64,000 nucleotides of DNA, from assembly GCA_004347965.1 (NCBI GenBank), contig QNVF01000001.1, positions 43,724 through 107,723 of the forward strand. The letters run 5' to 3'. The DNA is from Candidatus Nezhaarchaeota archaeon WYZ-LMO8 (GTDB taxonomy: Archaea; Thermoproteota; Methanomethylicia; Nezhaarchaeales; WYZ-LMO8). A program made the translations under genes and the position numbers. Shown here piece after piece: positions 411-21,604 of the stretch (the stretch's first letter is position 1; each line of letters opens with the position of its first letter). The notes beneath the pieces were generated by a model, which searched no databases, was not told the origin of the DNA, and worked only from the letters and a program-made list of their open reading frames with translations.

Positions 411-947
411 ATGGACGAAGGAAAGAATGACTTAATAAATGGAGCGCGAATGCGTATGCAGAAAATAAAGTTGACTATTAATGGAAAGCTTTACGAATTG
501 ATATTGGGTTATGAGGTTCAACCTTGGCATACTTTGGCTTTTACGTTAAGAGAAAAGTTGGGGTTGACTGGCACTAAAATAGGATGTGATAGAGGGGAAT
601 GTGGAGCATGCACGGTCCTCATGGATGGAAGACCGATTTTGAGCTGCCTAACTTTAACTGTTGAGTGTGATGGAAAGAACATTGAAACTATTGAAGGTCT
701 TCTCAACTCTAAAACCGGAAAGCTCCACCCAATCCAAGAGGCTTTCATTGAAAGTGGGGCTTTTCAATGTGGTTTCTGTACTCCAGGGATGATCATGTCG
801 GCAAAAGCCCTTCTTCAACGAAACCCAAATCCAACGCTAGAAGAGATCAGAGAAGCTATGTCAGGCAATCTCTGTAGGTGTACTGGTTACATACCCATAT
901 TTAACGCGATAATGAAAGCTGCAGAAAAAATGAGGGGTATGACATGA
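411..947 (+). CDS. Molybdenum-hydroxylase small subunit, [2Fe-2S] (CoxS/XdhC-type ferredoxin subunit)
   Basis: Two 2Fe-2S cysteine motifs, CDRGECGACTV and QCGFCTPGM...CRCTGY, typical of the small subunit of the xanthine dehydrogenase / CO dehydrogenase family. First gene of the S-L-M operon. Confidence 0.9.
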   Translation: MDEGKNDLINGARMRMQKIKLTINGKLYELILGYEVQPWHTLAFTLREKLGLTGTKIGCDRGECGACTVLMDGRPILSCLTLTVECDGKNIETIEGLLNSKTGKLHPIQEAFIESGAFQCGFCTPGMIMSAKALLQRNPNPTLEEIREAMSGNLCRCTGYIPIFNAIMKAAEKMRGMT

Positions 948-3340
948 GCTTTAAGATTATAAAGAGCGAGAAGGCAGAACAGAAATACAAGGAATGGAAA
1001 GTTTTAGGTAAGCCAATACCCTGTGTGAATAGCTACCTTAAAGTTACTGGTAAAGCAGCATTTACTGATGATATAATCCGGCCAAACATGCTTTACGGCA
1101 AAATCCTTCGTAGCCCGTTCGCACATGCAAAGATAGTGAAAATAGATGCAAGCGAGGCTGAAGCCCTACCAGGTGTATCTAGCGTGATAACTTATAAAGA
1201 TGTGGAGACAATGGGGGTTTCTCAAAAACCACCAGCCTACATTCTAACTGACAGAGTATTTTATGTTGGTGATGTTGTAGCAGCAGTAGCAGCAGAGGAT
1301 GAAGCTATAGCTGAAGAGGCTTTAGACCTTATTAAAGTAGAATATGAGCCCCTTCCATTTTGGCTTACCCCCGAGGAGGCATCATCCGCTCAACCAATGC
1401 ACCCCGAAGTCACTAAAGACAATATCGTTGTTGGTATGTGGCCTCCTTACTACAGGAGTGTAGGCGATATAAAGGAGGGATTTAAGGGGTCTGATATAAT
1501 AGTTGATGTGGAGTTTAGGAAGCCTAATATAAAGCATATGTTTTTGGAGAATTTTACGGCTGTAGCTGAGTGGAGAGGCGATGAACTACATGTTTGGTCC
1601 CATCCGCAAGTCGGTGCTGTGTCTTTTGCAATGATGCTTGCGTCAATTTTCAATGTACCGACAAATAAAGTCCATGTTTACCAATGCTTCATAGGTGGTG
1701 GCTTTGGAGGCAAGATGGGGGACGCTCCATTAAGGGTAGCGGCTCTGGCTGCAATGTTAGCCAAGAAATCTGGCAGACCTGTAAAAATTAGAACTAATAT
1801 TCGTGAACATTTTGTTGAAGGTGCTGTACTGGATCCAGGGATATCTACTTTCAAGTATAAAATAGGGGCCGATAAATTGGGTAATCTTAAGGCCATTGAT
1901 GCTACAGTATGGGCTGGTCAGGGCGAAAGGTCAATTAACCTTGGGATTGTATACTGCGGCGATACTATTTTCAACACTTATCGTATACCTAACAGATCTT
2001 TCAAGGCTTATCCATACTACACTAATACACCTATGTCGCAAGCTCTTCGCGCTTATGGCTCTCAGGCAGGTGTACCGCCTTTAGAAGAAGCTGTAAACGA
2101 AATTGCGGAAAAATTAGGTATGGATCCTGTAGACTTCATAATTAAGAATGGATTAAGGGATGGCGATATAGTTACCCAATACCTTCATAATGATTTTCAG
2201 CTTGCAGGGGGCAGCCTTCCTGAACTGGTGCAGAAAGCCGCGGAGATATTTAATTGGAAAGAGAAATGGAAAGGATGGAGTGTACCTACAGAAATTTCTG
2301 GTTCTAAGAGAAGGGGTATTGGGCTTGCTGTGGCAACGCACACGGCATGGGGGGTTCCTCAACCAGATAGGGTAAAGGATACGGTGATTATTAAAGTAAA
2401 CGTGAATGATGGCACGGTTGAGTGGGTGACTGATGGCAGAGATATTGGATCAGGATTCGATACGGTTGTAAGCCAAGTTATTGCGGAAGTATTAGGAATC
2501 GACATTAAAGACATTATACACGCACCACCACAATCAGTTGGTCAACCAATTGGAGGTTGGACATTTGCAAGCAAGGCCCTTCAATCAACAGTTTTCGCAG
2601 CATATAATGCGGCTAATAACTTAAAGCGAAATATAATTACGGCAGCAGCTTCTATCCTAAACGTTGATCCCAATAGGCTAGTATTAGATTTAAAGGGTAC
2701 TCGCATATATGTTGCAGGCGATCCAACACGCTATGTTAAGCTTTCAAAAATTGGAGAGATATATGGTGGCATATTGATAGGAATAGGTTCATGTCCCTCT
2801 CACTATGAGGGGCCGGAATCCTATATGGACCCAGTGACTGGCAGAAGACTTGGCATGAAAGGTATGTTCTGCTCATTTGCTGAGGTCGAAGTGGATATTG
2901 AAACCGGAAAAATAGATGTTATTAAGTTAATGGTCGCAACTCAGCCTGGCATGATATTAAATCCATTAATGGTTTATGGCCAACTTATTGGTTCAGCGGT
3001 GCATGGTATGGGTTGTATGTTGTGGGAAGGAATAATATATGACGAGAAGACGGGTACGCCATTAAATGCAAGCTTTATTGAGTATCCTATCCCAACAGCC
3101 CTTGATGTTACTGAAGATCAGTTTGTTTGCGTCACAATAGTTGACCCAGATGATGCAAAACTTACACCTTATAGAGCCAAAGGTATTGCGGAAGGAATAT
3201 TTGCCGCAATGTGGCACTCAATCCACATGGCTGTTTATAATGCAATTGGTAGAAAAATAAGGGAATTTCCGCTACGACCTGAGAAGATATTGAGGGCTTT
3301 AGGAAAGGCTCCGTTCCCCCAGACGAAGGGGGTTGTGTGA
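944..3340 (+). CDS. Molybdenum-hydroxylase large (molybdopterin-binding) subunit, aldehyde oxidase / xanthine dehydrogenase family
   Basis: 798 aa with the GGGFGGK motif and Ald_Xan_dh_C-like architecture. Start overlaps the small-subunit stop (ATGA). No VAYRCSFR CODH form-I active-site loop, so the substrate is unknown. Confidence 0.9.
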   Translation: MSFKIIKSEKAEQKYKEWKVLGKPIPCVNSYLKVTGKAAFTDDIIRPNMLYGKILRSPFAHAKIVKIDASEAEALPGVSSVITYKDVETMGVSQKPPAYILTDRVFYVGDVVAAVAAEDEAIAEEALDLIKVEYEPLPFWLTPEEASSAQPMHPEVTKDNIVVGMWPPYYRSVGDIKEGFKGSDIIVDVEFRKPNIKHMFLENFTAVAEWRGDELHVWSHPQVGAVSFAMMLASIFNVPTNKVHVYQCFIGGGFGGKMGDAPLRVAALAAMLAKKSGRPVKIRTNIREHFVEGAVLDPGISTFKYKIGADKLGNLKAIDATVWAGQGERSINLGIVYCGDTIFNTYRIPNRSFKAYPYYTNTPMSQALRAYGSQAGVPPLEEAVNEIAEKLGMDPVDFIIKNGLRDGDIVTQYLHNDFQLAGGSLPELVQKAAEIFNWKEKWKGWSVPTEISGSKRRGIGLAVATHTAWGVPQPDRVKDTVIIKVNVNDGTVEWVTDGRDIGSGFDTVVSQVIAEVLGIDIKDIIHAPPQSVGQPIGGWTFASKALQSTVFAAYNAANNLKRNIITAAASILNVDPNRLVLDLKGTRIYVAGDPTRYVKLSKIGEIYGGILIGIGSCPSHYEGPESYMDPVTGRRLGMKGMFCSFAEVEVDIETGKIDVIKLMVATQPGMILNPLMVYGQLIGSAVHGMGCMLWEGIIYDEKTGTPLNASFIEYPIPTALDVTEDQFVCVTIVDPDDAKLTPYRAKGIAEGIFAAMWHSIHMAVYNAIGRKIREFPLRPEKILRALGKAPFPQTKGVV

Positions 3341-4335
3341 TGAAGAGGTTTGAGCACTTCAATGCAAAAACTATTGATGAGGCCATTCTGCTACTCGAAA
3401 AGTATGACGGGGAAGCAAAGGTTATTGCTGGTGGAACAGACTTGATCAGAGTCTTGAAAGATGATATCTTGCCTAAATATCCAAAGGCTATCATCAATTT
3501 GAAAACAATAGCGAACTTAGAATACATCAAAGAGGAGAACGGAGTTTTAAAGATCGGATCTCTCACAAGGTTGAGTGACGTAGCGTCTTCCTCTCTTATA
3601 AAGACTAAATATAATTTACTTTCTGAAGCATGTCGTTCTGTTGGAACGCCGCAGATTCGAAATATGGGAACTATCGGGGGGAACTTATGCCAAGACGTCC
3701 AATGCTGGTATTATAGGGCATCAAAATCGCTTGGAAAAGTTTTTCATTGTCTTCGAAAAGGCGGAAACGTCTGTTATGCAGTTTCAGGTGATAATCGCTT
3801 CCACTCCATCTTTGGGGGCAAAGGATGCGTAGCCGTATGCCCATCTGATGTCGCTATCGCTTTAACAGCTTTAGATGCATTAGTAAAAACTAAAGGCCCT
3901 TTAGGCGAGAGAGTTTTTCCAGTTAGTGAGCTCTATAAAGATGCTGCACTAAATCTTGGGAGAAGTGAAATAGTTACGGAGATTCAGGTTCCAGAACCTC
4001 CCCCAGAAGCTAGGCAAATATGGATCAAATTTAGACTACGTAATTCTCTCGATTTCGCTATAGTTAGTGTTGCGGTGATGTTAACGTTAGAGGAAGGTGT
4101 GTGTAAAGATGTAAGGATAGCGCTAGGTGGAGTGGCTCCAACACCTAAAAGGCTAAAGGAAGTAGAAGATTTTCTAAAAGGTAACTATATTAATAGTGAG
4201 ACGGCAGAGAAGGCTGGTAAAATGGCCGTAGCTAAAGCATTTCCCCTTTCTCATAACGCGTACAAGATTCCTATAACAGAAAGTCTGGTGAAAAGGGTTA
4301 TTTTGATGGCAAAAGATCATCGCACATTGACCTGA
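3337..4335 (+). CDS. Molybdenum-hydroxylase medium FAD-binding subunit (CoxM-like)
   Basis: FAD_binding_5 signatures (AGGTDL, GTIGGN). Start overlaps the large-subunit stop. Confidence 0.85.
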   Translation: MMKRFEHFNAKTIDEAILLLEKYDGEAKVIAGGTDLIRVLKDDILPKYPKAIINLKTIANLEYIKEENGVLKIGSLTRLSDVASSSLIKTKYNLLSEACRSVGTPQIRNMGTIGGNLCQDVQCWYYRASKSLGKVFHCLRKGGNVCYAVSGDNRFHSIFGGKGCVAVCPSDVAIALTALDALVKTKGPLGERVFPVSELYKDAALNLGRSEIVTEIQVPEPPPEARQIWIKFRLRNSLDFAIVSVAVMLTLEEGVCKDVRIALGGVAPTPKRLKEVEDFLKGNYINSETAEKAGKMAVAKAFPLSHNAYKIPITESLVKRVILMAKDHRTLT

Positions 4336-4364
4336 AACGCTAAAGGCTCTTTGGTGAAGAGAAC

Positions 4365-5168
4365 GTGGTGACAGATGTAGAGACTTTAGAGATACTATTA
4401 CGTCTTCTAAAGAGGGGGAAGAGAGTTGCTTTATCTACTATTATAGATAAAAAAGGCTCTGGGCCGAGAGAGCCTGGGGCAAAAATGATTGTATGTGAAG
4501 ATGGCCAGACTTTTGGGACGATTGGTGGGGGAAATCTTGAAAGAGCTATAATTAATGAATCGTTAAATGCCTTGAAGCTAGATAAGCCAATGAAGGTTGT
4601 TCTCTCATTATCTAATAGAGATATCGAGGAAGGTATAAAAACTGGGTTAATATGCGGAGGTGAATTGACAGTGTTTATCGATATATTCAGACCAAACCCA
4701 AAAATAATTCTTATAGGCGCTGGCCATGTATCTCAGGCTATCGCAAGAATAGCGGAGATTATTGGTTTTGAGATAATTGTATTGGACGATGATGCCCAGC
4801 TTGCTAATAAGGAACGTTTTCCAATGGCTAAGGAAATACTTGTAGGCGACTTTAGTGAGATATTGGATAATTTGAAAATTGGCCCCTACGATTTTGTTGT
4901 CATAGCGCATGGAGAACCTGGACATGATTATTTGGCATTGGAGAGGGTTCTCAGAAAGAAGCCAGTATATGTGGGTTTGCTTGGAAGTAAAACAAAAGCA
5001 TTAAGACTCATAGAAAGGCTCAGAGAGACAGGGCTAGAGGAGAAAGATCTAAAGCCATTGCACGCTCCAGTAGGATTAGATATTGGGGCTCAAACGCCTG
5101 AAGAAATAGCAATAAGCATTCTCGCCGAAATAATACTCAAGAGAAGGAAGGACCTACCACATCAGTAA
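4365..5168 (+). CDS. XdhC/CoxI family molybdenum-cofactor insertion/accessory protein
   Basis: XdhC_CoxI N-domain plus Rossmann-like C-domain (IILIGAGHVSQAIARIA). Position immediately after the S-L-M genes. Confidence 0.8.
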   Translation: MVTDVETLEILLRLLKRGKRVALSTIIDKKGSGPREPGAKMIVCEDGQTFGTIGGGNLERAIINESLNALKLDKPMKVVLSLSNRDIEEGIKTGLICGGELTVFIDIFRPNPKIILIGAGHVSQAIARIAEIIGFEIIVLDDDAQLANKERFPMAKEILVGDFSEILDNLKIGPYDFVVIAHGEPGHDYLALERVLRKKPVYVGLLGSKTKALRLIERLRETGLEEKDLKPLHAPVGLDIGAQTPEEIAISILAEIILKRRKDLPHQ

Positions 5169-5176
5169 TTTCAAAT

Positions 5177-5809
5177 TTGAAGGCGAAAACTTTGATTTCT
5201 CTTATTGTGTTAGCTGCAGGTTCATCAATAAGATTTGGTAGAAATAAATTGTTGGAGAAAATAGGTGGAATCTCCATAATTGAAAGGGTAGTTAAGAGCG
5301 CTGTCTCTTCAAAAGCTGATGAAGTTGTAGTCGTACTTGGATATGAGTCAGAAAAAATTAGAGCGGTTCTTAAGAATTTTAATTGTAAGTTTGTGTTTAA
5401 TGAGAACTTTAGAGAAGGGCAAAGCTCCTCTGTTAAGGCTGGAGTTAGATCTGTTATGGGATACGCTGACGCGGTGATGATACTTCCAGGGGATTTGGCA
5501 TTGATTACACCAGCATCTATTAACAAAGTTATTGAAGAATATGAGAAAAGCGGAGCCCCGGTAGTAGTTGCAAGTTATAGAGGATTTTTAGGACACCCAA
5601 TACTCTTCGATAAATCACTTTTTAATGAAATAATGAAAATAAGTGAGGAGAAGGAGGGCTTAAAGGCTATTGTAAACCAATATAGGGATTTAATAAAGAA
5701 AGCGGAAGTAAACTCAGATGAGGTCTTAATTGATATTGATTATGAAGAGGATATTTTAAAAATTCTCCATCGTTTTCAATCATTTAATAAAGGCTTAATT
5801 GAAAATTAA
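5177..5809 (+). CDS. MobA/MocA-like molybdenum cofactor nucleotidyltransferase (probable CTP:molybdopterin cytidylyltransferase)
   Basis: N-terminal LAAGSSIRFG-NKLL motif of the MobA-like NTP transferases. Apparent TTG start. Co-located with the Mo-hydroxylase genes. Confidence 0.7.
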   Translation: MKAKTLISLIVLAAGSSIRFGRNKLLEKIGGISIIERVVKSAVSSKADEVVVVLGYESEKIRAVLKNFNCKFVFNENFREGQSSSVKAGVRSVMGYADAVMILPGDLALITPASINKVIEEYEKSGAPVVVASYRGFLGHPILFDKSLFNEIMKISEEKEGLKAIVNQYRDLIKKAEVNSDEVLIDIDYEEDILKILHRFQSFNKGLIEN

Positions 5810-5961
5810 AATCGATGATTTTTAGCAGTACAACTTGGCATGTAGCATTAGTTAAGGGCGGATAATATACTAATCCATTGCTTAAATAAAACTTGCCTAA
5901 TTTTTTGAGATAAATTTTTAAAATTAACTATAAATATGTTCCTTCCTAAGGAGGGTCGTGC

Positions 5962-7203
5962 TTGGAAGATGGTGATTTATTCGGCTTAATTCAGGCGAAG
6001 GTTTGGAGAAGCAAGTTTTCACCTTCACCTGAGCTTCCGGAGGAAGAATATCAAAGAAAGCCCTTCATATTTGATATTGAAACACATGTGTGGGATGGAA
6101 GACATAGATCGAGGGTCCCGCTACTGGATGATTTTCTAAAAGGCGTCGAGTTAAGGGTTGCATGGTACCGAATGGAGAAGGAATGTGACCTCACGCACAT
6201 AACTTTAGACCGATATATGCGTGAGTTATACGTGGAAAGTGAGTGCGACATGGCTTTTGTTTGCTCACTTCAGTCCTTTGGAGTAAGAAAGCCGGAGATA
6301 GAACGCTATATAGCTGAACCTGAAGATGTAGCAGCAGCTCAGAAAGCGTACCCCCATAGAAATATTGCTGCAGGATTGATCGCTCCTGTAATTGCGGGAG
6401 ATGAAGGAATAGAGTATATCGAATACCAAGTGAGGAGACTTGGTATAAGAGTCTGGTCAGAGACTTATAACTATGTACGGAGACCCAATGCGCCTCGCGG
6501 GCAACGTGTGGTGAATTGGCGTTATGACGATGAAAAACGCGTATATCCTATCCTAGAAAAGCTTGTTGAACTAAATGCCCCCATTCTTTGTCTCTCGGGC
6601 CCCCGTCCTGGTGATGGAAGATGTGACTGGAGCGACGTTGATATTGCCGCTAAAAACTTTCCAGAGTTAACCTTCATAATTTACCACTTTGGAGGGATAT
6701 ATTACAAGTCCGCTGCGCATGCCGCTGCCAGCAATAAGAATGTTTTTATAGGATGGAATGTGAAACATGATCCACTTCGGAGCGTGCCAGAGCGATACAT
6801 AGAACGCTTTGGCGAAATCTTCGCGATTACTGGTCCAGAAAAGATTGTATGGGGCACAGATTGGCCAGCAACTGGGTATATGCAATTTCAGATAGAGATG
6901 TGTAAGGCTTTTCAATTTCCAAAAGAGATAAGGTTGAAGTATGCATTGCCAGAACTTACTGAGAAAGATAAGAGAAGAATGTTTGGCTTAAACATGGCTG
7001 AGATTCTCAAGAAACACGGCTTTATAGAGAGCCTTGAGGAGCATCTTAAGAAGATAAGGGAAGACGAATTTAGTCGAGAAGCCGCCAGAATCTTACCCAC
7101 GCTTAAGGCGAAATACAAGAAATTACTTATGGATTTGCATCCATGGTGGAGAGATCAGGAACACTGGTTAATTTGGAAATATGAAGAGAGCCCCTTTCAA
7201 TAA
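5962..7203 (+). CDS. Amidohydrolase-2 family (TIM-barrel metal-dependent hydrolase/decarboxylase) protein
   Basis: FDIETHVWD metal-binding motif near the N-terminus and WGTDWP near the C-terminus. The N-terminal ~30 aa and the start codon are uncertain. Confidence 0.65.
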   Translation: MEDGDLFGLIQAKVWRSKFSPSPELPEEEYQRKPFIFDIETHVWDGRHRSRVPLLDDFLKGVELRVAWYRMEKECDLTHITLDRYMRELYVESECDMAFVCSLQSFGVRKPEIERYIAEPEDVAAAQKAYPHRNIAAGLIAPVIAGDEGIEYIEYQVRRLGIRVWSETYNYVRRPNAPRGQRVVNWRYDDEKRVYPILEKLVELNAPILCLSGPRPGDGRCDWSDVDIAAKNFPELTFIIYHFGGIYYKSAAHAAASNKNVFIGWNVKHDPLRSVPERYIERFGEIFAITGPEKIVWGTDWPATGYMQFQIEMCKAFQFPKEIRLKYALPELTEKDKRRMFGLNMAEILKKHGFIESLEEHLKKIREDEFSREAARILPTLKAKYKKLLMDLHPWWRDQEHWLIWKYEESPFQ

Positions 7204-7352
7204 GATAAGTCAATTTTACTTTGATCTGCAATAAGGAGGAGCAATAGGCTCCCTTTAATTTATCTCCAACTATGCCGAAAGAATTAAATATGTTACATAT
7301 ATTGCTTATGAGTATACGTATAATGGTTATCCCTCAAAAAGAGGGTTGGTCC

Positions 7353-8396
7353 ATGATAATTGATATAGATATGCATTGGCTTCCAGAGAATCTGTTTTCT
7401 GATAAAAAATTGTTAAGGCAGCTGCTAGAGATTGTTCCACGGGCTTACGGTGAGTATGCCTCAGTTACCACGATACCTGGAACCGATAAAATGCAAATAA
7501 TTATAGAGAAGCCAAAGGGATATGTAAACCTAAATTACACCGAACTTGATGTAAGTCCTAGCAAGAGATTGGAGGATATGAAAGAAGCTGGCGTTGATAA
7601 AGCAATTCTTAGGATAACCTGCTGGCAAGAATGGTTAACGTTAGACTTATGTAAAAAGTTTAATGATCTTTTAGCAGCCTACATAAATGAGCACGCTGAT
7701 AAATTTCTAGGTCTTGCCGTTGTGCCTCCATGGGGGAATGAAGAATCCCTTGAGGAAATGGATAGGTGCATTAAGGATCTTGGGTTTTCAGGAATACAAT
7801 GTGTTGCCCGTTATGGAACGCTTTACTTAGATGAAGAAGAGTTTAGACCGTTCTTCAAAAAGGTTAATCAGCTTGGCGTGCCACTAGTTGTTCATCATAC
7901 CCCGCTACCGGTGGAATACAATAGCATTTATAAGTACACTAATCTCCGTCGGCAATATGGAAGATGTATGGTTCAAATGATATCCTTAAGCAGGATTCTT
8001 TTCAGCGGATTGCTTGATGATTTTCCTAACCTGGTATTGATTTTCACAATGTTGGGAGGAGGCTTCTTTGCCTATACTAAAATGCTTGCAGGGGAAAGAT
8101 CAAAAACATGGGAGGAAATTGAGCGTTTCGACCCAGCAGCTGAGAAAGTCAGAAAATATTTGGATAAGAACATTTACTTTGAGCTTACCGCACCAACTAT
8201 CTGGTCAAAACATCAACTAGAGTGTGCTGTGAAAGAATTGGGTGCAGATCATATCTTATTCGGAAGCGGTTATCCTGTTAGACGAGAATGGCTGCTTAAA
8301 GGCGTGGAGTATATTAGAAGTCTAGACGTAAGTGAAAAAGAGAAAGAACAAATTTTAGGTGAGAATGCCATCTCTCTTTTTAAAATAAAGGTTTAA
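7353..8396 (+). CDS. Amidohydrolase-2 family protein
   Basis: MIIDIDMHW motif at the N-terminus and HILFGSGYP near the C-terminus. ATG at 7353 preceded by GAGGGT 7 nt upstream. The ORF track's longer start at 7272 is probably upstream read-through. Confidence 0.65.
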   Translation: MIIDIDMHWLPENLFSDKKLLRQLLEIVPRAYGEYASVTTIPGTDKMQIIIEKPKGYVNLNYTELDVSPSKRLEDMKEAGVDKAILRITCWQEWLTLDLCKKFNDLLAAYINEHADKFLGLAVVPPWGNEESLEEMDRCIKDLGFSGIQCVARYGTLYLDEEEFRPFFKKVNQLGVPLVVHHTPLPVEYNSIYKYTNLRRQYGRCMVQMISLSRILFSGLLDDFPNLVLIFTMLGGGFFAYTKMLAGERSKTWEEIERFDPAAEKVRKYLDKNIYFELTAPTIWSKHQLECAVKELGADHILFGSGYPVRREWLLKGVEYIRSLDVSEKEKEQILGENAISLFKIKV

Positions 8397-9966: not shown

Positions 9967-9981
9967 TTTGGAGAGGATGAT

Positions 9982-10851: not shown

Positions 10852-10855
10852 TGGT

Positions 10856-11785: not shown

Positions 11786-11863
11786 AAAGCTCTTTGAGAG
11801 TAAGGTCTGGCTAAAAGTTTTAGTAAGTTTTATAAAATAAGAGCATTTTAATACTAAAGCAAT

Positions 11864-14134: not shown

Positions 14135-14202
14135 CTTTTACAATCGCTCTTTATACTATTTAAAAATAAAATTATGGTTTAAAATAAAGATTCTTGTTGT
14201 AA

Positions 14203-15153
14203 TTATAGTCCTATTGTCTTCTCATATCTTAATCTAACTTCTTCAGAGGGCAGGAACTTCTTCTCATATTCTTGTATCTTGTCATATCCTGTGAAGTCAA
14301 ATAGTTTTTTCAGGCCAAATAGTGGGTGGTTTTTATACTTATTCTCAAAATCAATCTGTGCCTGTGTTCCTCTCTTCTTAAGATCTTGCAAATAATCCCA
14401 AACAGCGATTACCGCTGGCTCTAATGACGATCCTGGGAATACAACAATAGCTATTCCTAACTCTTGGCATTCCTCAAGTGATAACCTGGGATGAAGCCCG
14501 CTTGGATGGTACAGCATTGGCGCTCCAACCTCTTTAACGGCCCTCTCTATTTCTTCTTTACCTTTCTCTATGCCTAAGCCGTCAGCAAAGACTACATCAG
14601 CTCCCGCTTCGGCGTAAGCTTTCATTCTTTTTATGGCCTCATTTAATCCTCCACCCACAGCATTTCTCGCATCAGTCCGGGCAATTAAAACAAAATTAGG
14701 ATCTTCATCCTCTATCACTTTTTTAGCAGCCTTAATTTTTCCTATCATCTCCTCCATTGGTATTACCATTTTTCCCTTCAACATTCCACATCTCTTGGGC
14801 ATTACCTGGTCCTCTATATGGATTGCTGCCACTCCAGCCTTTATGTAATCTCTTACTGTGCGCATCACATTAATTGCATTGCCATATCCATTATCAGCAT
14901 CAGCGATTACTGGAACACTCACAACATCCACTATGTACTTTGCATTTTGTATCATCTCTGTTGCGGTTATTAGATTAACATCACACCACCCTATTCTTTC
15001 CATCGATGTACAGCCTCCAGAAATATAAATTGCTTCAAAGCCTACAGCCTCAGCGATCCTTGCAAAAAGTGGGTTATGAGCGCCCGCAGCCACTATCATC
15101 TTCTCGCGATAATTATCCAACATCTTCCTAAATTTTGCTGTCATACTTGTCAT
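14203..15153 (-). CDS. Isocitrate lyase / PEP mutase family enzyme (methylisocitrate lyase / carboxyvinyl-carboxyphosphonate phosphorylmutase-like)
   Basis: ICL/PEPM family signature around IHIEDQVMPKRCGMLKGK. About 300 aa TIM-barrel length. Confidence 0.8.
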   Translation of the reverse strand: MTSMTAKFRKMLDNYREKMIVAAGAHNPLFARIAEAVGFEAIYISGGCTSMERIGWCDVNLITATEMIQNAKYIVDVVSVPVIADADNGYGNAINVMRTVRDYIKAGVAAIHIEDQVMPKRCGMLKGKMVIPMEEMIGKIKAAKKVIEDEDPNFVLIARTDARNAVGGGLNEAIKRMKAYAEAGADVVFADGLGIEKGKEEIERAVKEVGAPMLYHPSGLHPRLSLEECQELGIAIVVFPGSSLEPAVIAVWDYLQDLKKRGTQAQIDFENKYKNHPLFGLKKLFDFTGYDKIQEYEKKFLPSEEVRLRYEKTIGL

Positions 15154-15403
15154 TTTATTGCCCTCCTTCTCTTATGTAAAACTGTAATTACATTAGCTGA
15201 GCCCTTCATAAAGTTTTTGTTAGAACTTTGGGACCAATGATAAGCGACTATTGAACTATATTTAAGTGGGATAAATATTATTAAGCAGAACACGGGATCC
15301 TCAGTAGCATAGTTGCTAACAAAAAATGTTGCTAAAACAAAAGCTTACGTACAAAGATTTATATAAGACTATAAGTGACTTCAATTAAGTTTGAGGTGGG
15401 GGT

Positions 15404-15838
15404 ATGAGTCTATTTGCGCGAAGAGAAGAAATTCCAGAAAAAATGAGGGGGCACGTAATTGTTACTGGAGAAACATTGATGATGCAGATTGTGACCATAG
15501 TGCCAGAACCAGGCAAAGAAGAGGTTCCACCTCATCGACATAACGAAGAGCAGCTAGGATACATATTAGAGGGAGAATGCGAGCTTGAAGTGGAAACAAA
15601 TCATCCTCCCACAGCCAATTGGGGCTCTTGCCCAGACAAGTTTGCGGGACAACCTTCTGAAAAGCGTATACTCAAAGCGGGAGACTTCTTTAGAATACCT
15701 GCGGGGGCTCTTCATAGGCTAAAAATACTTGGGAACAAGCCTGTGTCTTGGATAGCCGCATACCATCCCGTTAGACCTGACTATCTGCCTAATGCAATCA
15801 AGCTTGAATCTAAACATAGACCACTGCCATTTAAATAA
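15404..15838 (+). CDS. Cupin-domain protein
   Basis: Small beta-barrel cupin motifs (PPHRHNEEQLGYILEG ... GALHRL). Confidence 0.5.
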   Translation: MSLFARREEIPEKMRGHVIVTGETLMMQIVTIVPEPGKEEVPPHRHNEEQLGYILEGECELEVETNHPPTANWGSCPDKFAGQPSEKRILKAGDFFRIPAGALHRLKILGNKPVSWIAAYHPVRPDYLPNAIKLESKHRPLPFK

Positions 15839-15967
15839 CTAAGTAATTGTATGTCACTTTTGGAAAATGCTTCTCTTTTTATTTCCCTTTTTCTAACAAC
15901 TTCATACCACAACTTTTATATTTAATCTATCTTTTGAAGGTGAAAGAAACTAACGAGGGGGGCTTAA

Positions 15968-17692
15968 ATGGTTAAGGTTTTAGAAACTGATGTTTTAGTG
16001 ATAGGAAGTGGTGCAGCGGGTCTTTGGTCAGCTATTAAAGTATTTGATTCTGGAATTGACGTGATGATAATAACAAAGGGAATGCTATCCCGAAGCGGGT
16101 GTTCACGTCTCTCTGGCTTTCATTGGGGACCCTACAACCCAGAAAATATCTCTTTAGCCGATATAGATCATTTAGGTACTCATATCAGATTATTTAACAG
16201 CAAGATACTGCGCTCCATACTTGAATATAGTCCAGTGGTTGTTAGAGAATTAGAGCGGCTTGGAATATACTGGAGACGAAGGTCTGATGGCAAAATTGCT
16301 GAACATAAGCCAGACATACCTTATCCACTAGCATGGAAAGCCGGTGAAACTGGTCAAAGAGTTATGGACATTTTATATAGTGAAACTTTACGCAGAGGAA
16401 TTAACTTCATAGAAGATACTATGGCAACTTCATTATTGCTGTCTAATGGTCGATGTGTAGGCGCTACAGCTCTAAATTATATGAGAGGCGAATTTTTCGT
16501 GATAAAGGCAAAAGCCACGATCCTTGCAACCGGGCATCCAGGGGTATATCGCTATAGCACCCAGTCAAGAGAGAATACCGGAGACGGCATCGCTATGGCC
16601 TATAGATGCGGTGCCGAAATTGTTAACATGGAATTCCAGCACTGGCATCATAGTGACACGCAATATCCCGAGTCTGCTAGGCGACTTGTACATAACGTAC
16701 CCTCATGGTCAGAATGCTTCTTTGGGAAGGAATTCTTGGCGAAATTTAAGGGTATCCCAGAGGGTACTGAAGTTTGCACTATTGTGGATAAGGAAGGAAG
16801 AGATGTTATGAAAGAATTGAAAAAACTTGCGGCAACTGTCGACACATTTCATTCTCCGAGTGTTCAACAAATAATAGCTCTACTCTATGGGAAGAGAGGA
16901 GGACTATTTATGCGCTACAACCAGGCAATATTAAAGACCGGCGTACTTGCCGACTCGTTTTATAATTATAGGCCACTCACCAACTTTTATCATCTAGAAA
17001 AGGAATTAGTGCCCCTTGGAACAACTGCACACACCCATGCTGGAGGGGTTAGGATAAACGAGAGATGTGAAACCACTATACCAGGTCTCTATGCCGTTGG
17101 TGGTGTAGCTGGTATTTATCCAACGGTTCTCACCTGTCTATGGGGTGGAGCTACGGCTGCTAAGTATGCTGCGGAAATAGTTAGAAAAACACCATCACCC
17201 GAATTAGATTGGAGTCAAGTGGAGGCTGAAAAAGAAAGAGTTGAATCCTTTTTAAGGTTAAAGCCGAGCGACGGCTTCACCCCACTTCAAATACAGAGGA
17301 AAATAAGAGATTTGATGTGGGATAAAATGTGGATAATAAAGACCGTTTCTGAAATGAAGGAGGCTCTTGTGGAGCTATCGAGAATTGAAAAGGAGCTTGT
17401 TCCAAAGATGGGCTTAGAGACTACTGTAAAGTCTGGCAACTTTGGTTGGGCGCATGCCTTAGAAGTAATTAATATGATCACCGTTTGCAGGCTCATGATA
17501 TGGGCGAGCCTTACACGCAAGGAGACACGCCCCCCTCATATAGTTAAGGACTACCCCAGACAAGACGATGAAAATTGGCTAAAGATCGTAGTCTTGAAAT
17601 ATAAACCCGATAGACCTGATGAGCCGGAGATAAAAATTGAGCCTCTTTCTGATCCTGCCTATTTATATTTAAGCAGTAGAGGGGGACATTAG
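15968..17692 (+). CDS. FAD-dependent flavoprotein of the succinate dehydrogenase/fumarate reductase (SdhA/FrdA/TfrA) family
   Basis: N-terminal dinucleotide fold VLVIGSGAAGLWSA, HTHAGGVRIN (the H-x-H-MGG equivalent) and GLYAVGGVAG. No obvious covalent-FAD histidine motif. Confidence 0.75.
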   Translation: MVKVLETDVLVIGSGAAGLWSAIKVFDSGIDVMIITKGMLSRSGCSRLSGFHWGPYNPENISLADIDHLGTHIRLFNSKILRSILEYSPVVVRELERLGIYWRRRSDGKIAEHKPDIPYPLAWKAGETGQRVMDILYSETLRRGINFIEDTMATSLLLSNGRCVGATALNYMRGEFFVIKAKATILATGHPGVYRYSTQSRENTGDGIAMAYRCGAEIVNMEFQHWHHSDTQYPESARRLVHNVPSWSECFFGKEFLAKFKGIPEGTEVCTIVDKEGRDVMKELKKLAATVDTFHSPSVQQIIALLYGKRGGLFMRYNQAILKTGVLADSFYNYRPLTNFYHLEKELVPLGTTAHTHAGGVRINERCETTIPGLYAVGGVAGIYPTVLTCLWGGATAAKYAAEIVRKTPSPELDWSQVEAEKERVESFLRLKPSDGFTPLQIQRKIRDLMWDKMWIIKTVSEMKEALVELSRIEKELVPKMGLETTVKSGNFGWAHALEVINMITVCRLMIWASLTRKETRPPHIVKDYPRQDDENWLKIVVLKYKPDRPDEPEIKIEPLSDPAYLYLSSRGGH

Positions 17693-17693
17693 T

Positions 17694-19235
17694 ATGAATA
17701 GTGGCTCCACGGTCAGAGTCAGGGTTTTCAGATACCATAAGGGTATGGACAAGCCTAGATATGAAACCTATGAAGTCCCGCGCCTTCCAAAAATGACTGT
17801 TTTAGATGCATTAGAGTACATAACGGAGGTTCTCGGAGTTGATTTAGCTTATCGGAGTAGCTGTGGAATAATGCGGTGCGGGCAGTGCGGTGTTTTAGTT
17901 AACGGTAAGGCTGTCCTAGCATGCCAACATAAGATAGAAACTGATGAGATAACAGTTGATCCATTGCCAAACTTCCCTATAATAAGGGATCTTGTTGTGG
18001 ACTTCAGTCAAGCTCGAAACGATCTTCAAAGGATACTCCATTTTGTTAGAGGAAAAGCTGCAGAATTTCCGGAGCCCATTGATGATGAGAAGATGAAGAA
18101 GGTACGAGATTTCTCTCAGTGCATTGAATGTAGACTCTGTATGAGCGTTTGTCCAATAATCACAGGATATAAAGAGTGGCTTGGACCTACCTTTTTCGTA
18201 TGGGTTTCAAGATTTAACATGGATGTACGTGATGCCGCCAAAAATATGCGCCTAGAAAAAATAAGGGACGAACTTTGGTACTGTGCTGCATGTGGTTCAT
18301 GTGAGATTATTTGTCCGTGGGAAGTACCTGTCTGGGAGGGAATTAACGAGTTACGTAGTGAAGTTGTAGAGAGCGGCTTTATACCTAGGACGCTTAGGGT
18401 GGCTCTAACAAACGTAATTAACTATAAGAATCCATGGGGTCTTCGTGGAAAAAGAGATCAATGGGCTCAGGGTATGAAAATAAAGAGGCTGCCCGGTGAG
18501 AAGGCTGATGTACTCTTTTTTGTGGGATGTACAGCTTCATATGAAACAAGAGTTCAAAATGTCGCTCGAGCTGGAGTTATGGTTCTTGAGAAGGCTAATG
18601 TTGATTTTGGTATTCTCGGGGACTATGAATCCTGCTGTGGTGAACCGTTTCTGAGAATTGGTGAAAAGGGTCTTTTTGAATTGCTGGCTAATGAGAACAT
18701 AGAGAACTTCAAAAGATGTGAGGTAAAGACAATCGTTACAATATGCCCGCATGCATACGACGTATTTACAAAGGAGTATCCCAAACTTGGCATTTCATTC
18801 ACAGCTTTGCATCACACGCAATTTCTCTCTGATTTAATAGATAGAGGTAAACTGAGGATTGCTAGGAGGTTAGATAAAGTAGTTACATATCATGATCCAT
18901 GCTTTCTCGGAAAACGTAACAAGATCTTCGAAGCACCTAGAAAGATCCTAGAGAGTATTCCAGGGATAAAACTTGAGGAAATGCCCAGAAATAAAGAAAA
19001 CAGTTTTTGCTGTGGTGGAGGTGGTGGCAGAATGTGGTTTGAGGAAAGCTCGTTAAAGGTGAAGGAGAGTCCATGCGTTATCCGCGCTAAGGAGGCTGCT
19101 GAGCTTAAACCAGATATAATAGTGACTGCCTGTCCATTCTGCCTAACAAACCTTGAGTACGGCGTCAAAGTGATTGAAAGGGAAAACGAAATCCAAGTAA
19201 TGGACATAATGGAGCTACTGACTAATGTGATTTAA
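17694..19235 (+). CDS. Fused iron-sulfur (SdhB-like 2Fe-2S + 2x[4Fe-4S]) and CCG-domain (HdrD/SdhE-like) subunit, TfrB-like
   Basis: SdhB-like N-terminal 2Fe-2S region (CGIMRCGQCGVLVNG), ferredoxin motifs CIECRLCMSVCP / CAACGSCEIICP, and two CCG motifs (ESCCGEP, SFCCGGGGG). Start 2 nt after the flavoprotein stop. Confidence 0.75.
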   Translation: MNSGSTVRVRVFRYHKGMDKPRYETYEVPRLPKMTVLDALEYITEVLGVDLAYRSSCGIMRCGQCGVLVNGKAVLACQHKIETDEITVDPLPNFPIIRDLVVDFSQARNDLQRILHFVRGKAAEFPEPIDDEKMKKVRDFSQCIECRLCMSVCPIITGYKEWLGPTFFVWVSRFNMDVRDAAKNMRLEKIRDELWYCAACGSCEIICPWEVPVWEGINELRSEVVESGFIPRTLRVALTNVINYKNPWGLRGKRDQWAQGMKIKRLPGEKADVLFFVGCTASYETRVQNVARAGVMVLEKANVDFGILGDYESCCGEPFLRIGEKGLFELLANENIENFKRCEVKTIVTICPHAYDVFTKEYPKLGISFTALHHTQFLSDLIDRGKLRIARRLDKVVTYHDPCFLGKRNKIFEAPRKILESIPGIKLEEMPRNKENSFCCGGGGGRMWFEESSLKVKESPCVIRAKEAAELKPDIIVTACPFCLTNLEYGVKVIERENEIQVMDIMELLTNVI

Positions 19236-19328
19236 ATTAAAGCAATTAAGAAATTTTTCTTATTTTATCACTTATTTTTCAAAAGTTTTATATAGACTTA
19301 GAAAATTAGATTCTCGAGATGATGGAGC

Positions 19329-20657
19329 ATGGTTTTTCATAAAGCAAGTGATATAATCATCGTGGGTGCTGGAACTGCTGGGCTTTCGGCAGCCGTTAGA
19401 GCTAAAGAAGTGGATCCAAATGTTCAGGTAGTTGTTTTAGAGGCAATGCCAACATATGCTAGCAGCCTTCTTATGAAGCCATATTTTGCCCTAGGTTTCC
19501 CAGATGAAGAGTGGTATCGTGAAGGCGTGAAAGCAGGTGGAGACCCTGAATTATGGAAGGTTTATACAGAACGCGGCCGCTGGCTTTATGAGTGGTTAAA
19601 AGAAAAAGGTATTCGACCAATAGATGACGAGAAATGGGAAACGTTGCGGAGAAAACATGAAGTTCCTGGAAGACAGATCATCGAAGTTTTTGATAAGATT
19701 GCTAGAGAAAAAAATGTGGAGATATTATTTAATCACAGGGCAACCAAGCTAATTACGCAACCTGAAACTAGAAGAGTTATAGGCGTTAGAGTCCAAACGA
19801 GGATAGGAGAAGTTAGATTTAAAGCTAAGAGAGCAGTGATCTTGGCAACCGGAGGGTTTGGGCGTAATGAGGAGCTGATAAAGGAGTTTGGCCCATGGTG
19901 GATTGGATGTATTCCGATTGTGCCTCCAGGGCACCAGGGAGACGGGTTAAAGATGGCTTTAGATATTGGAGCGGCAACTAAGTATATAGCTGGGGCGGTC
20001 GTGCCCTCACGAACTGTTTGCGTAGATAACAAGCAGATAACACATATGGATACAGCAGGATCCATTGCGGTTGATCCCCGCGGAAAAAGATTCGTCGATG
20101 AATCAGATCCATTCTATGGTACCATGACCAAAAAATGTTTAGAGATGATTCCAGAAAAATACTTCTACATAGTTTTTGATGAGAAGATAAGGCTAGATGC
20201 AAAGCTAGAATACGAAAAGCCAGTAATTTATAAGGGAAATACTATTGAGGAGCTCGCGATGAATGCGGGAATAGATCCGAAGGGACTTAGAGAGACTATA
20301 GAGAAGTACAATCATGATTTAGAAACTGTAGGATATGACACGGTATTTGGGAGAAAGTGTATATGGCAAGGAGCTGACCCAAGACCCCCGCCAAAGATAG
20401 ATACTCCTCCATTCTATGCTATTAAGGTCACAGGATCTTTTACTTCATTTAAGGCAGGGATCCGAATTAACAGTAAAGCTCAAGTGTTAACTTGGTTCAA
20501 TGAAGTCATACCTGGACTATATGCTGCAGGTGAGGTAACAGGTGGTCTCTTCTATAAGGGGTATTATCATCCAAATCCGTCTATGGTAACAAGTGCTATG
20601 ATATTTGGATGCATCGCCGCTGAAAATGCTGTAAAAGAGTCACCCATTGACTGTTAA
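19329..20657 (+). CDS. FAD_binding_2 family flavoprotein (soluble fumarate reductase / KstD / TcuA-like dehydrogenase)
   Basis: IIIVGAGTAGLSAAVRA dinucleotide fold, ATGGFGRN, and C-terminal PGLYAAGEVTGG motif. Confidence 0.7.
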   Translation: MVFHKASDIIIVGAGTAGLSAAVRAKEVDPNVQVVVLEAMPTYASSLLMKPYFALGFPDEEWYREGVKAGGDPELWKVYTERGRWLYEWLKEKGIRPIDDEKWETLRRKHEVPGRQIIEVFDKIAREKNVEILFNHRATKLITQPETRRVIGVRVQTRIGEVRFKAKRAVILATGGFGRNEELIKEFGPWWIGCIPIVPPGHQGDGLKMALDIGAATKYIAGAVVPSRTVCVDNKQITHMDTAGSIAVDPRGKRFVDESDPFYGTMTKKCLEMIPEKYFYIVFDEKIRLDAKLEYEKPVIYKGNTIEELAMNAGIDPKGLRETIEKYNHDLETVGYDTVFGRKCIWQGADPRPPPKIDTPPFYAIKVTGSFTSFKAGIRINSKAQVLTWFNEVIPGLYAAGEVTGGLFYKGYYHPNPSMVTSAMIFGCIAAENAVKESPIDC

Positions 20658-20716
20658 TCCTAACATTCGCTAGCTAACTTTTATGGTTTTTAAAATTACA
20701 GCGGTTGGTGGTTAGG

Positions 20717-21604
20717 ATGATAATCGATTCCGAAACTCATCCCATAGGCATTAATAATAGAGGTGAGGTTATGAATTTCTGCGCAAAGCTTCTAATGTAC
20801 ATGGATCAACGTGGTGTGGACGCTGCTTGTGTTCTTCCAGCACCTGTAATGGGCTGCAATGTAGCGGGAAGAATAATTGAGCAAGCCACTAAAATAGCTC
20901 CTAAGAGATTAATCCCATGGTGCCGACTTTTTTACAGAGAGCCAGTTTTACCGAACCCTTGGACCTTATCTCCATCTCTGGAAGAAGAGAAGGAAAGAGC
21001 TCTAGAGGAACTAGAGGAAATGTTGAAAAGTGGAGTATTTAAGGGTGTAGGCGAACTTGATTTTACTGAAACTGGTTGCGAGGACCCACGTGACTCAGTA
21101 AAAATGTTTTATCCATTTATGGACATAGTAGCTAAGTTCAAGGTTCCTGTTCACTTTCACACGGGTTTTGGGAAAGGACCTTGGATGTACTATGATCCTA
21201 TGCTGTTTGACACTATAGCTGATAGATATCCTGAAATACCACTAATTATAGGTCACAGTGGAGGAATGTTGCCTCACTTTGGAGAGGTTTGCTTTGCATT
21301 AGCAGTGAGATATGATAATGTCTTTCTTCAGGTTGCAAACATTGACCTCATAATGTGTGAGTCCGGAAGAAGGCTCTTCAAAAAATTCATTAGAAAGGCC
21401 CTAAAGACCTTCAGAGTAGGCGCTGAAAAGCTGATTTTTGGATCTGATATTAGACCAAGCGAGTTAGTGGGAGATACACCAGAAGCGCGTAGGCGTGAAG
21501 GGGTAGCCAGCATGACAATCGAAGTCTTAAAAGAGGTTAAGATGAGTGAGCAAGAACTCTTACTTATTCTAGGCGACAACCTTAAGAAACTTCTGAAAAT
21601 ATGA
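20717..21604 (+). CDS. Amidohydrolase-2 family protein
   Basis: MIIDSETHP N-terminus and IIGHSGG motif. ATG at 20717 with GGTGGTTAGG upstream. Confidence 0.6.
   Translation: MIIDSETHPIGINNRGEVMNFCAKLLMYMDQRGVDAACVLPAPVMGCNVAGRIIEQATKIAPKRLIPWCRLFYREPVLPNPWTLSPSLEEEKERALEELEEMLKSGVFKGVGELDFTETGCEDPRDSVKMFYPFMDIVAKFKVPVHFHTGFGKGPWMYYDPMLFDTIADRYPEIPLIIGHSGGMLPHFGEVCFALAVRYDNVFLQVANIDLIMCESGRRLFKKFIRKALKTFRVGAEKLIFGSDIRPSELVGDTPEARRREGVASMTIEVLKEVKMSEQELLLILGDNLKKLLKI

Follow-up and report, generated by a model that had tools for sequence, protein, structure and literature searches.

A co-conserved archaeal gene cluster with a possible role in the anaerobic conversion of a carboxylated cyclic compound

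Between positions 411 and 21604 of a 64,000-nucleotide stretch of DNA from Candidatus Nezhaarchaeota archaeon WYZ-LMO8 (assembly GCA_004347965.1, contig QNVF01000001.1, positions 43,724 to 107,723; the whole stretch is called the window here), genes for a molybdenum (Mo) enzyme of the xanthine dehydrogenase (XDH) family, three amidohydrolase-2 proteins (AH1, AH2, and AH3), a Liv-type importer, a lyase of the phosphoenolpyruvate mutase/isocitrate lyase (PEPM/ICL) family, a cupin, two flavoproteins, and an SdhB-like Fe-S protein fused to CCG domains (SdhB::CCG) lie close together. Do these genes work together, and if so, on what kind of compound? The first part of this question is answered by the neighborhoods of their homologues: the genes constitute one cluster of approximately 23 kb and 20 genes, which we conclude to be a selected functional unit within a narrow archaeal clade. 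With regard to the second part, the gene families and their residues would fit one linked cluster for the uptake and anaerobic conversion of a cyclic or (hetero)aromatic compound with a carboxyl group, a reading to which we give roughly even odds (a probability of about 0.5).

Gene content and conservation of the cluster

The comparison of neighborhoods started from homologues of three cluster proteins: the first flavoprotein, the lyase, and AH1. In relatives at 77-83% identity, the same genes are found in three further orders or orientations, and the genes that flank them differ between loci. Three loci at ~83% identity (L006, L012, and L007) retain the order of the window, but an inserted AFOR-ThiS-amidohydrolase stretch separates the binding protein from the EamA-family transporter, and a dimethyl sulfoxide (DMSO)-reductase-family gene follows AH3. 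At ~80% (L028), a block of AH1, AH2, LivGFHM, and the solute-binding protein is inverted and abuts EamA, next to which lie the lyase gene and the series of cupin, flavoprotein, Fe-S::CCG protein, second flavoprotein, and AH3. At ~77% (L005), 12.6 kb hold the lyase gene; cupin, flavoprotein, and Fe-S::CCG; CoxM and CoxS::CoxL (reversed); an HMGL-like synthase gene with AH1 and AH2; and XdhC. The linkage is partial at 56% (L009), where the HMGL-like synthase, flavoprotein, Fe-S::CCG, and cupin genes are accompanied by a PrpD-family gene and by a different, 35% identical, PEPM-family gene. Because the genes are co-conserved with rearrangement in these relatives, they behave as a functionally linked unit. 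The original prediction had held that this is not a random gene mix and had proposed a search of gene neighborhoods as a check; the same members are indeed kept through inversion, reshuffling, and a change of flanks. The range of the cluster is limited to one small hot-spring clade of archaea that carry the labels Nezhaarchaeales or 'Bathyarchaeia' (the window proteins match exactly those of metagenome-assembled genomes [MAGs] labelled Candidatus Nezhaarchaeales/Nezhaarchaeota WYZ-LMO8 and 'Bathyarchaeia'), and we conclude that the association of the flavoprotein/Fe-S::CCG/cupin/synthase/lyase core reaches somewhat beyond it.

An explanation by juxtaposition would see independent units side by side, namely the Mo enzyme with its maturation genes, an amino-acid importer, the lyase, and the flavoprotein operon, kept together by recent ancestry. 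That the same set of genes recurs in four orders and orientations, between different flanks, argues against it, as do the CoxS::CoxL fusion and the 12.6-kb compaction in L005, the partial recurrence of the core at 56% identity, and the distant bacterial relatives of the flavoprotein, which again lie with Liv, EamA, and CCG genes. In its favor, the loci with full synteny all lie within the clade at 77% identity or above, remoter PEPM homologues stand in other contexts, and the neighbors of the flavoprotein/Fe-S pairs at 43% and 57% identity differ: at 43% they are unrelated, and a pair at 57%, from Jordarchaeaceae (L026), lies directly behind the gene for a DMSO-reductase-type Mo/W enzyme and that of its Fe-S subunit. 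Most cluster genes are also preceded by a TATA-like element of their own. On balance, we regard mere juxtaposition as unlikely. A candidate shared operator, TGTAATTA(CA), occurs in three intergenic regions of the cluster only, but was rejected, as its total count is 4 against 3.0 expected and its palindrome is not conserved in the relatives; the other k-mers shared by intergenic regions are generic TATA/BRE-like elements.

Gene families were assigned with the model cutoffs of Pfam and NCBIfam, and every gene named in the original prediction was present at its position. The prediction had left out the gene for the 513-aa SdhB::CCG protein (17694-19235), and the extent that it gave, 411-21604, falls short on the left, where the cluster continues past the window edge through an HMGL-like gene of the isopropylmalate/citramalate/homocitrate-synthase family, of which the window holds the 5' end (1-111, minus strand; 37 codons, TTG start at 111). 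The first 10,947 bases of the window are identical to contig JAWCJF010000002.1 (GCA_038853625.1). None of the cluster proteins scores above an NCBIfam equivalog cutoff, and hence none can be named by orthology. The earlier view that the substrate cannot be named from the sequence was correct. The G+C content of the cluster is 0.405 versus 0.429 in the remaining window. As no mobility genes were seen, the former term 'island' holds in the sense of a gene cluster, and not in that of a demonstrable foreign origin.

Redox enzymes of the cluster

The Mo enzyme comprises a CoxS-type small [2Fe-2S] subunit (411-947, +; Fer2_2 1e-35), a CoxL-type large molybdopterin subunit (944-3340, +; Ald_Xan_dh_C, MoCoBD_1, and MoCoBD_2), and a CoxM-type FAD subunit (3337-4335, +). 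The two [2Fe-2S] domains, the a/b-hammerhead, MoCoBD_1, MoCoBD_2, FAD_binding_5, and CO_deh_flav_C domains are all above their Pfam cutoffs. As had been proposed, the enzyme has its own maturation genes, one for an XdhC-family chaperone of Mo cofactor insertion and sulfuration (4365-5168, +; XdhC_CoxI and XdhC_C) and one for a MocA-like molybdenum cofactor cytidylyltransferase (5177-5809, +; NTP_transf_3; TIGR03310 155 bits against a cutoff of 186); together, these predicted functions imply a sulfurated molybdopterin cytosine dinucleotide (MCD) cofactor. XdhC is also present in L005, where the small and large subunits are fused into a CoxS::CoxL protein of 977 aa (5287-8220, −).

Among solved relatives of CoxL, the alpha subunit of 4-hydroxybenzoyl-CoA reductase (4-HBCR; 1rm6_A) scores highest (300 bits), followed by PaoC (207), the nicotinate, quinoline, and CO dehydrogenases (~160), and the Sulfolobus glyceraldehyde oxidoreductase 4zoh (139). 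The ranking of NCBIfam models for the Mo subunits agrees with that of the solved relatives, and all cutoffs are missed. For instance, the alpha, beta, and gamma equivalogs of 4-HBCR give 421 versus 994.55, 164.8 versus 404.55, and 184.3 versus 257.8 bits. The glyceraldehyde dehydrogenase equivalogs are likewise missed in all three subunits (263.7 versus 790, 188.7 versus 350, and 215.2 versus 290), which, with the ranking of the solved relatives, speaks against a glyceraldehyde oxidoreductase of the Sulfolobales type; the grouping with such enzymes that the original prediction had named as a refuting result was thus not found. Aerobic CO dehydrogenase (CODH; form I) was also rejected, with TIGR02416 at 180 against 991 bits and an active-site loop that reads LRAYGSQAG. 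The consensus of this loop in form I enzymes is AYRCSFR. By these model scores and residues, the Mo enzyme is classed as neither a glyceraldehyde oxidoreductase nor a CODH.

The catalytic glutamate of CoxL is retained (Glu750 in AKGIAEG, aligned to the Glu of the SEG motif in 1rm6_A). In CoxM, an insert of ~40 aa contains four cysteines (C123, C138, C146, and C164) and aligns with the loops of the Methylobacillus aldehyde oxidase 5y6q_B, E. coli PaoB (5g5g_B), and HcrB (1rm6_B). The loops of PaoB and 5y6q_B presumably bind a [4Fe-4S] cluster, as does that of HcrB. The cysteine spacing of CoxM is of the PaoB/5y6q_B type, three of the four HcrB cysteine positions are aligned, and in the alignment the loop is missing from the medium subunits of CODH and NDH and from the glyceraldehyde enzyme. 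The role of the catalytic Glu in XDH-family large subunits, the binding of a [4Fe-4S] cluster by the inserted loop of HcrB, and the action of XDH-family enzymes as anaerobic dehydroxylases of a CoA ester and of a free phenol have been described (PMC11760930). The four-cysteine loop of CoxM suggests electron exchange with a ferredoxin-type partner. The enzyme could carry out hydroxylation, aldehyde oxidation, or a reductive dehydroxylation like that of 4-HBCR and the recently described urolithin C dehydroxylase UcdCFO.

The first flavoprotein (15968-17692, +) has the SdhA/FrdA fold, with FAD_binding_2 and Succ_DH_flav_C domains. It is adjoined by the gene for the SdhB::CCG protein (17694-19235, +), in which Fer2_3 and Fer4_8 domains are fused to an HdrB-like part with two CCG domains (motifs SCCGEPF and FCCGGGGG, read from the sequence). 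This domain order is the TfrB architecture, and the NF004898 TfrB model gives 338.4 bits against a cutoff of 385. An AlphaFold 2 (AF2) model of the flavoprotein (pLDDT 90.7) has TM scores of ~0.8 to SdhA/FrdA and 0.76-0.78 to APS/PAPS reductases, and a fold search with it returned only the complex-II/AprA fold (TM 0.76-0.83), which does not discriminate function. The His for covalent FAD is missing (the site reads RSGCS), WHHSD stands in place of the HPT motif, no Arg aligns to the proton donor of the RGEG motif, and the HGANRLG segment, which bears the second substrate Arg, is absent, so that His355 (in H-x-x-x-G-G) is the only one of the four complex-II-type residues of the fumarate site that is retained. 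These atypical traits are common to the archaeal relatives and to a bacterial clade at 30-35% identity, which shares a W-H-x-S-D motif. In the same alignment, SdhA/NadB-like sequences (P0244, P0252, P0256, and P0264) have their canonical motifs intact, and TfrA-annotated sequences retain the HGANRLG segment in canonical or variant form. As judged from these motifs, the SdhA-fold flavoprotein belongs to a distinct clade, together with the bacterial proteins that share W-H-x-S-D.

The second flavoprotein (19329-20657, +) is a soluble FAD_binding_2 protein of the flavocytochrome-c/TcuA/KstD branch (Pfam/NCBIfam), with no haem domain according to Pfam. Compared with Shewanella Ifc3 (1qo8), His365 is replaced by Ser, Arg402 by Asp, His504 by Ser/Thr, and Arg545 by His; we take this numbering to be that of the Shewanella flavocytochrome-c fumarate reductase. 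The NCBIfam list for its Fcc branch includes KstD, ChcC1/C2, and VprA, which are cyclic-ketone desaturases and ene-reductases. Two known activities were rejected on these grounds: a TfrAB thiol:fumarate reductase (TfrA 212.1 versus 718 and TfrB 338.4 versus 385 bits, with a fumarate site that is not retained) and a soluble flavocytochrome-c-type fumarate reductase (all four catalytic residues substituted, haem domain missing). The earlier description of both flavoproteins as fumarate-reductase-like or dicarboxylate-dehydrogenase-like is therefore not supported, as the His/Arg set that binds fumarate or succinate is missing in both, and they are better seen as putative C=C reductases or desaturases.

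A profile of the SdhA-fold subfamily detected 2 loci among 185,579 species genomes and 9 loci in metagenomes, mostly bacterial relatives at ~30% identity. The neighbors of the bacterial relatives (30-33%) are SdhB, a separate CCG protein, EamA, a Liv-type importer, and IclR regulators; beside one of them, CoxMSL genes lie ~4 kb off, beyond two transposases. A tblastn search of plasmids with a member of the bacterial clade gave only two matches, both on haloarchaeal megaplasmids at 30% identity. One of these loci (L029, a megaplasmid of Natribaculum luteum) has a 30%-identical SdhA-like/SdhB pair and an IclR gene beside an argininosuccinate-lyase-like (ArgH-like) gene and genes for a TauE/SafE exporter, UxaA-family hydrolase subunits, and a TRAP transporter, a context unlike that of the cluster.

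Carbon-carbon chemistry, amidohydrolases, and transport

The PEPM/ICL-family protein (14203-15153, −) has the PEP_mutase fold and the catalytic Cys, and its best matches are dimethylmalate and methylisocitrate lyases (best PDB match 3fa3, 2,3-dimethylmalate lyase, 6e-48). Its PrpB score is 241 bits against a cutoff of 354 (NCBIfam), and its catalytic loop reads KRCGM. A K(R/K)CGH loop is present in 116 of 122 homologues; KRCGM is limited to the lineage at 78% identity or above, and homologues at 69% or below have the canonical KRCGH. The HMGL-like synthase at the left edge is 405 aa long in the source contig and transcribed divergently from CoxS; it reaches 392 bits with LEU1_arch, for which the cutoff is 485, and its gene also adjoins cluster genes in L005 and L009. 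The small monocupin (15404-15838, +; Cupin_2 2e-15) has a complete His/His/Glu...His metal motif as read from its sequence. Its gene lies directly upstream of the flavoprotein in L005, L007, L008, L012, and L028 and nearby in L009; a single-sequence AlphaFold model of it (pLDDT 39.8) was of too low confidence for a fold search.

Could these enzymes belong to ordinary central metabolism, with a glyceraldehyde oxidoreductase, a TfrAB for anabolic succinate, a methylisocitrate lyase, and a branched-chain amino-acid importer? We consider this very improbable, as the model scores already largely refute it: the glyceraldehyde dehydrogenase models stand at 264 versus 790, 215 versus 290, and 189 versus 350, TfrA is at 212 versus 718 with the fumarate-site residues missing, and PrpB is below its cutoff with an altered catalytic loop. 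Furthermore, a flavoprotein subfamily found in 2 of 185,579 species genomes is a poor fit to a housekeeping role. What such a view can claim is the TfrB-type architecture of the Fe-S protein (338 versus 385 bits), the recording of proteins identical to those of the window for WYZ-LMO8, a presumably Mcr-bearing MAG, and a YcaO-TfuA gene pair elsewhere in the window (55299-57190, +). This pair is known for the formation of thioglycine in McrA and would thus fit the affiliation of the host.

All three amidohydrolases belong to PF04909, with scores of 78.3 (AH1; 5962-7203, +; 1e-21), 96.1 (AH2; 7272-8396 as listed, +), and 61.6 bits (AH3; 20705-21604, +; 1e-16) against a cutoff of 26.4. The original prediction called them paralogous, which is correct as to the family; with mutual identities of 18-25% over partial lengths, they are not recent paralogues. 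The roles of the metal and catalytic residues of amidohydrolase-2 proteins have been described (10.1101/457895). An N-terminal D/E-x-H motif is kept in AH1, AH2, and AH3. In an alignment that includes 70 homologues, Ser212 of AH1 occupies the β5 His position (His in 93%) and Met260 of AH2 the β6 His position (His in 97%); AH2 also has Gly333 at the canonical position of the β8 Asp. AH3 has the complete canonical set. Relatives of AH1 are rare, with 3 clusters (90% identity) at E<=1e-10 among 5.8 billion proteins and 2 representatives (50% identity) at E<=1e-30 among 1.84 billion, and AH1 thus appears nearly an orphan. AH2 matches the structures of LigW2, gamma-RSD, and ACMSD at 1e-22 to 1e-17 (4qs5, 2dvt, and 4inf at ~2e-22), which places it, by similarity, in the LigW/gamma-resorcylate/ACMSD decarboxylase branch. 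For AH3, the PDB matches are weak (LigY, E 0.03), and it has no meaningful solved relative. AH1 and AH2 are neighbors in every locus, and a heteromer of the two is possible. The start of AH2 probably lies at 7353, 27 codons downstream of the listed one, as its relatives and the annotations of other MAGs have a protein of 347 aa beginning with MIIDIDMHW, compared with the listed open reading frame (ORF) of 374 aa. A protein at least 90% identical to AH2 (P0013) has been deposited as 'candidate division WOR-3 bacterium' on a 5.9-kb contig, to be explained either by faulty binning or by very recent transfer.

The chief rival to a ring compound is an aliphatic substrate. According to this alternative, the conserved core (HMGL-like synthase, PEPM-family lyase, SdhA-fold flavoprotein with SdhB::CCG, and cupin) would act on branched di- or tricarboxylic acids by chemistry of the citramalate/methylcitrate/methylisocitrate type: acetyl-CoA and a 2-oxoacid would be condensed by the synthase, the isomerized product would be cleaved by a lyase of the methylisocitrate/dimethylmalate type, the flavoproteins would interconvert saturated and unsaturated acids, and a Mo aldehyde oxidoreductase would feed acids in. 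The best matches of the lyase point this way, as do the CoxM cysteine loop, which is most like those of the aldehyde oxidoreductases 5y6q_B and PaoB, the L009 locus, which unites HMGL, a PrpD-family protein, a PrpB-like PEPM gene, and the flavoprotein/Fe-S pair, and a PrpD_C fragment near a PEPM homologue from Baldrarchaeia. Yet the Arg and His residues that bind dicarboxylates are missing in both flavoproteins, the lyase loop is KRCGM and not KRCGH, the cluster of the window has no aconitase- or PrpD-type dehydratase, and three amidohydrolase-2 enzymes, one of them in an aromatic-decarboxylase branch, would be left without a role. We hold the aliphatic alternative to be possible but doubtful, and the most serious of the competing explanations.

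The importer consists of two ATPases and two BPD_transp_2 permeases (LivG, LivF, LivH, and LivM types; 8517-11785, +; Pfam/NCBIfam) and a Peripla_BP_6 solute-binding protein (11864-13177, +; Pfam 2e-48), which together form a Liv/HAAT-type set. The binding protein is membrane-anchored, with an N-terminal hydrophobic helix and a Thr/Pro linker read from its sequence. Its nearest solved proteins are Leu/Ile/Val binders (~1e-15), the aromatic-acid binders 4ey3 and 4evs are weaker, and the LivJ/K equivalog score of NCBIfam is not reached. The gene for the EamA-family transporter (13271-14134, +; Pfam) adjoins that of the lyase, an adjacency kept in L003, L007, L012, and L028.

Several features surround the cluster. 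The 1.2 kb after AH3 are poor in ORFs and contain a short remnant of a Fer4_11-type ferredoxin-like gene (21994-22224, −), at the site of which L007 has a frameshifted gene for a DMSO-reductase-family alpha subunit. A probable tRNA-Met(CAU) at ~22626-22744 (−) is interrupted by two introns, which lie behind the anticodon and in the T-loop, respectively; it was missed by ARAGORN and Rfam, and ARAGORN calls tRNA-Met once both inserts are removed in silico. An ADP-forming acyl-CoA synthetase alpha gene (23591-25024, +), 2 kb past AH3, is the sole nearby candidate for CoA activation and is not kept beside the cluster in L007. Farther on, an acyl-CoA dehydrogenase gene and, after it, a gene for an acetoacetate-decarboxylase-family protein (47628-49663, +), with a radical SAM gene in front of them, form a small, unrelated cluster. 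On the other side, upstream of the HMGL-like gene, L023-L025 (1-7300) contain genes for an Fe/Mn superoxide dismutase, an HdrA-like protein with an MvhD/FlpD domain, a Fer4 and CCG protein, EtfAB, and a metallo-beta-lactamase/ODP-type protein, a possible electron-bifurcating module that was not seen beside the cluster in relatives.

Proposed function and known systems

The gene families, their co-conservation with rearrangement, and the atypical residues are read from the genomes themselves; the order of events that follows is one we infer. Uptake of the carboxylated cyclic or (hetero)aromatic substrate would fall to the Liv-type ABC system with its membrane-anchored binding protein, and the Mo enzyme, with an MCD cofactor and sulfurated Mo, would add a hydroxyl group to the ring or remove one. 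The amidohydrolase-2 set could then catalyze decarboxylation, hydration, or hydrolytic ring opening, with AH1 as a lineage-specific partner of AH2. The two flavoproteins would act as C=C reductases or desaturases, on either the ring or the chain formed by its opening, and the SdhA-fold enzyme would be wired through SdhB::CCG to a thiol/disulfide or other low-potential couple. The cupin may isomerize or otherwise process an intermediate. Finally, the PEPM-family lyase and the isopropylmalate-synthase-like enzyme would cleave or form C-C bonds, leading to the pools of pyruvate, 2-oxoacids, and acetyl-CoA, and EamA would export a product.

A number of points weigh against this proposal. The cluster (1-21604) has no CoA ligase and no ring-reducing enzyme of the benzoyl-CoA type, and neither a regulator nor a shared operator was found in it. 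AH1 and AH2 each lack a near-invariant catalytic residue, and one of them may be non-catalytic. In L009, the combination of HMGL, PrpD-like, and PEPM genes resembles aliphatic chemistry of the (methyl)citrate type more than ring chemistry. The strongly syntenic loci all come from one narrow clade, so that the linkage may in part be inherited synteny. In addition, the three fetched PEPM homologues at 78, 61, and 55% identity (L003, L001/2, and L004, respectively) stand in unrelated contexts; since the only context they share with the cluster is EamA, together with a hydantoinase, in L003, the lyase alone is a poor anchor.

A more specific form of the proposal would be a novel anaerobic route for an aromatic or N-heteroaromatic ring carboxylate in thermophilic archaea that are presumably Mcr-bearing. 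In it, a 4-HBCR-related Mo enzyme would modify the ring, the new SdhA-fold clade, connected through the TfrB-like CCG protein to a CoM/CoB-type thiol/heterodisulfide or ferredoxin pool, would reduce the ring or an enoate, and the lineage-specific pair AH1/AH2 would decarboxylate the compound or open its ring. We think it rather unlikely in this detailed form; if true, it would tie methanogen-type redox cofactors to the catabolism of organic acids. A role in the biosynthesis of coenzymes M and B, suggested by the IPMS/AksA-like synthase and the CCG domains, was put aside by inference, as neither the importer nor the Mo enzyme nor the decarboxylase-type proteins would fit it.

Whichever substrate is used, the cluster bears on the way of life of its hosts. 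Nezhaarchaeota and related uncultured hot-spring archaea have been discussed chiefly as hydrogenotrophic methanogens. A conserved catabolic cluster with its own transporter would show that a specific organic acid is used by them as well. The cluster also flags three groups of enzymes without a characterized member, namely the SdhA-fold clade, the near-orphan AH1, and the PEPM lyase with an altered loop, of which the first, for which the usual binding of fumarate would not be possible, recurs in soil bacteria beside Liv-type importers. These enzymes are testable by heterologous expression, even though the host is uncultured.

Among known systems, 4-HBCR (HcrCAB/HbaBCD, 1RM6) and UcdCFO are similar to the cluster in their three-subunit XDH-family enzyme, of which HcrA is the best solved relative of CoxL (300 bits), in the Cys-rich insert of the FAD subunit at the place of the [4Fe-4S] loop of HcrB, in the anaerobic setting, and in the MCD cofactor that MocA implies. 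In contrast to 4-HBCR, the cluster enzyme misses all three equivalog cutoffs widely and has a cysteine spacing like that of PaoB/5y6q_B, and the cluster lacks the aryl-CoA ligase and benzoyl-CoA reductase of 4-HBCR systems. The hba cluster of R. palustris presumably also has a Liv-type ABC importer. The degradation of picolinate in Proteobacteria uses a Mo dehydrogenase (PicA) and an amidohydrolase_2 decarboxylase (PicC) (10.1101/457895; 10.1101/530550), and a comparable pairing of Mo dehydrogenase and amidohydrolase-type enzyme is known for lumazine (PMC12391406). These pathways resemble the cluster in their combination of an XDH-family Mo dehydrogenase, an amidohydrolase-type enzyme, and a non-oxidative decarboxylase, which there act on an N-heteroaromatic acid. 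On the other hand, they are aerobic, use oxygenases (PicB and PicD), and have no SdhA-fold flavoprotein with SdhB::CCG, PEPM lyase, or IPMS-like synthase.

Nicotinate fermentation in Eubacterium barkeri, which the original prediction had offered as a model, shares with the cluster its anaerobic logic, which starts with Mo hydroxylation and ends with a PEPM/ICL-family lyase. Apart from these two enzymes, that pathway is made up of an enamidase, 6-hydroxynicotinate reductase, 2-(hydroxymethyl)glutarate dehydrogenase and dehydratase, B12-dependent 2-methyleneglutarate mutase, methylitaconate isomerase, and dimethylmaleate hydratase. The cluster's 20 genes include no enamidase (Amidohydro_1/3), no reductase of the 6-hydroxynicotinate type, and none of the others, and the analogy is only a loose one. 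The TfrAB of methanogens and type-E succinate dehydrogenases likewise have an SdhA-fold flavoprotein and an SdhB-type subunit with two CCG motifs; the A subunit of the cluster differs from TfrAB in its score (212 versus 718), in the lack of HPT, the proton-donor Arg, and the HGANR Arg, and in its separate clade. The three amidohydrolases resemble COG2159 (LigW, gamma-resorcylate decarboxylase, ACMSD, LigJ, and LigY) in Pfam membership and in the D/E-x-H motif, and depart from it in the missing β5 His of AH1, the missing β6 His and β8 Asp of AH2, and the want of a meaningful solved relative for AH3. A search of the literature on Nezhaarchaeota and Bathyarchaeota in connection with Tfr, 4-HBCR, and Cox gave no description of the cluster, and its composition matches none of the picolinate, lumazine, 4-HBCR/UcdCFO, or nicotinate pathways. 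All of its families are known ones; the novelty lies in how they are combined, in the limitation of this set to one small clade, made up of uncultured thermophiles, and in the atypical character of several of its members.

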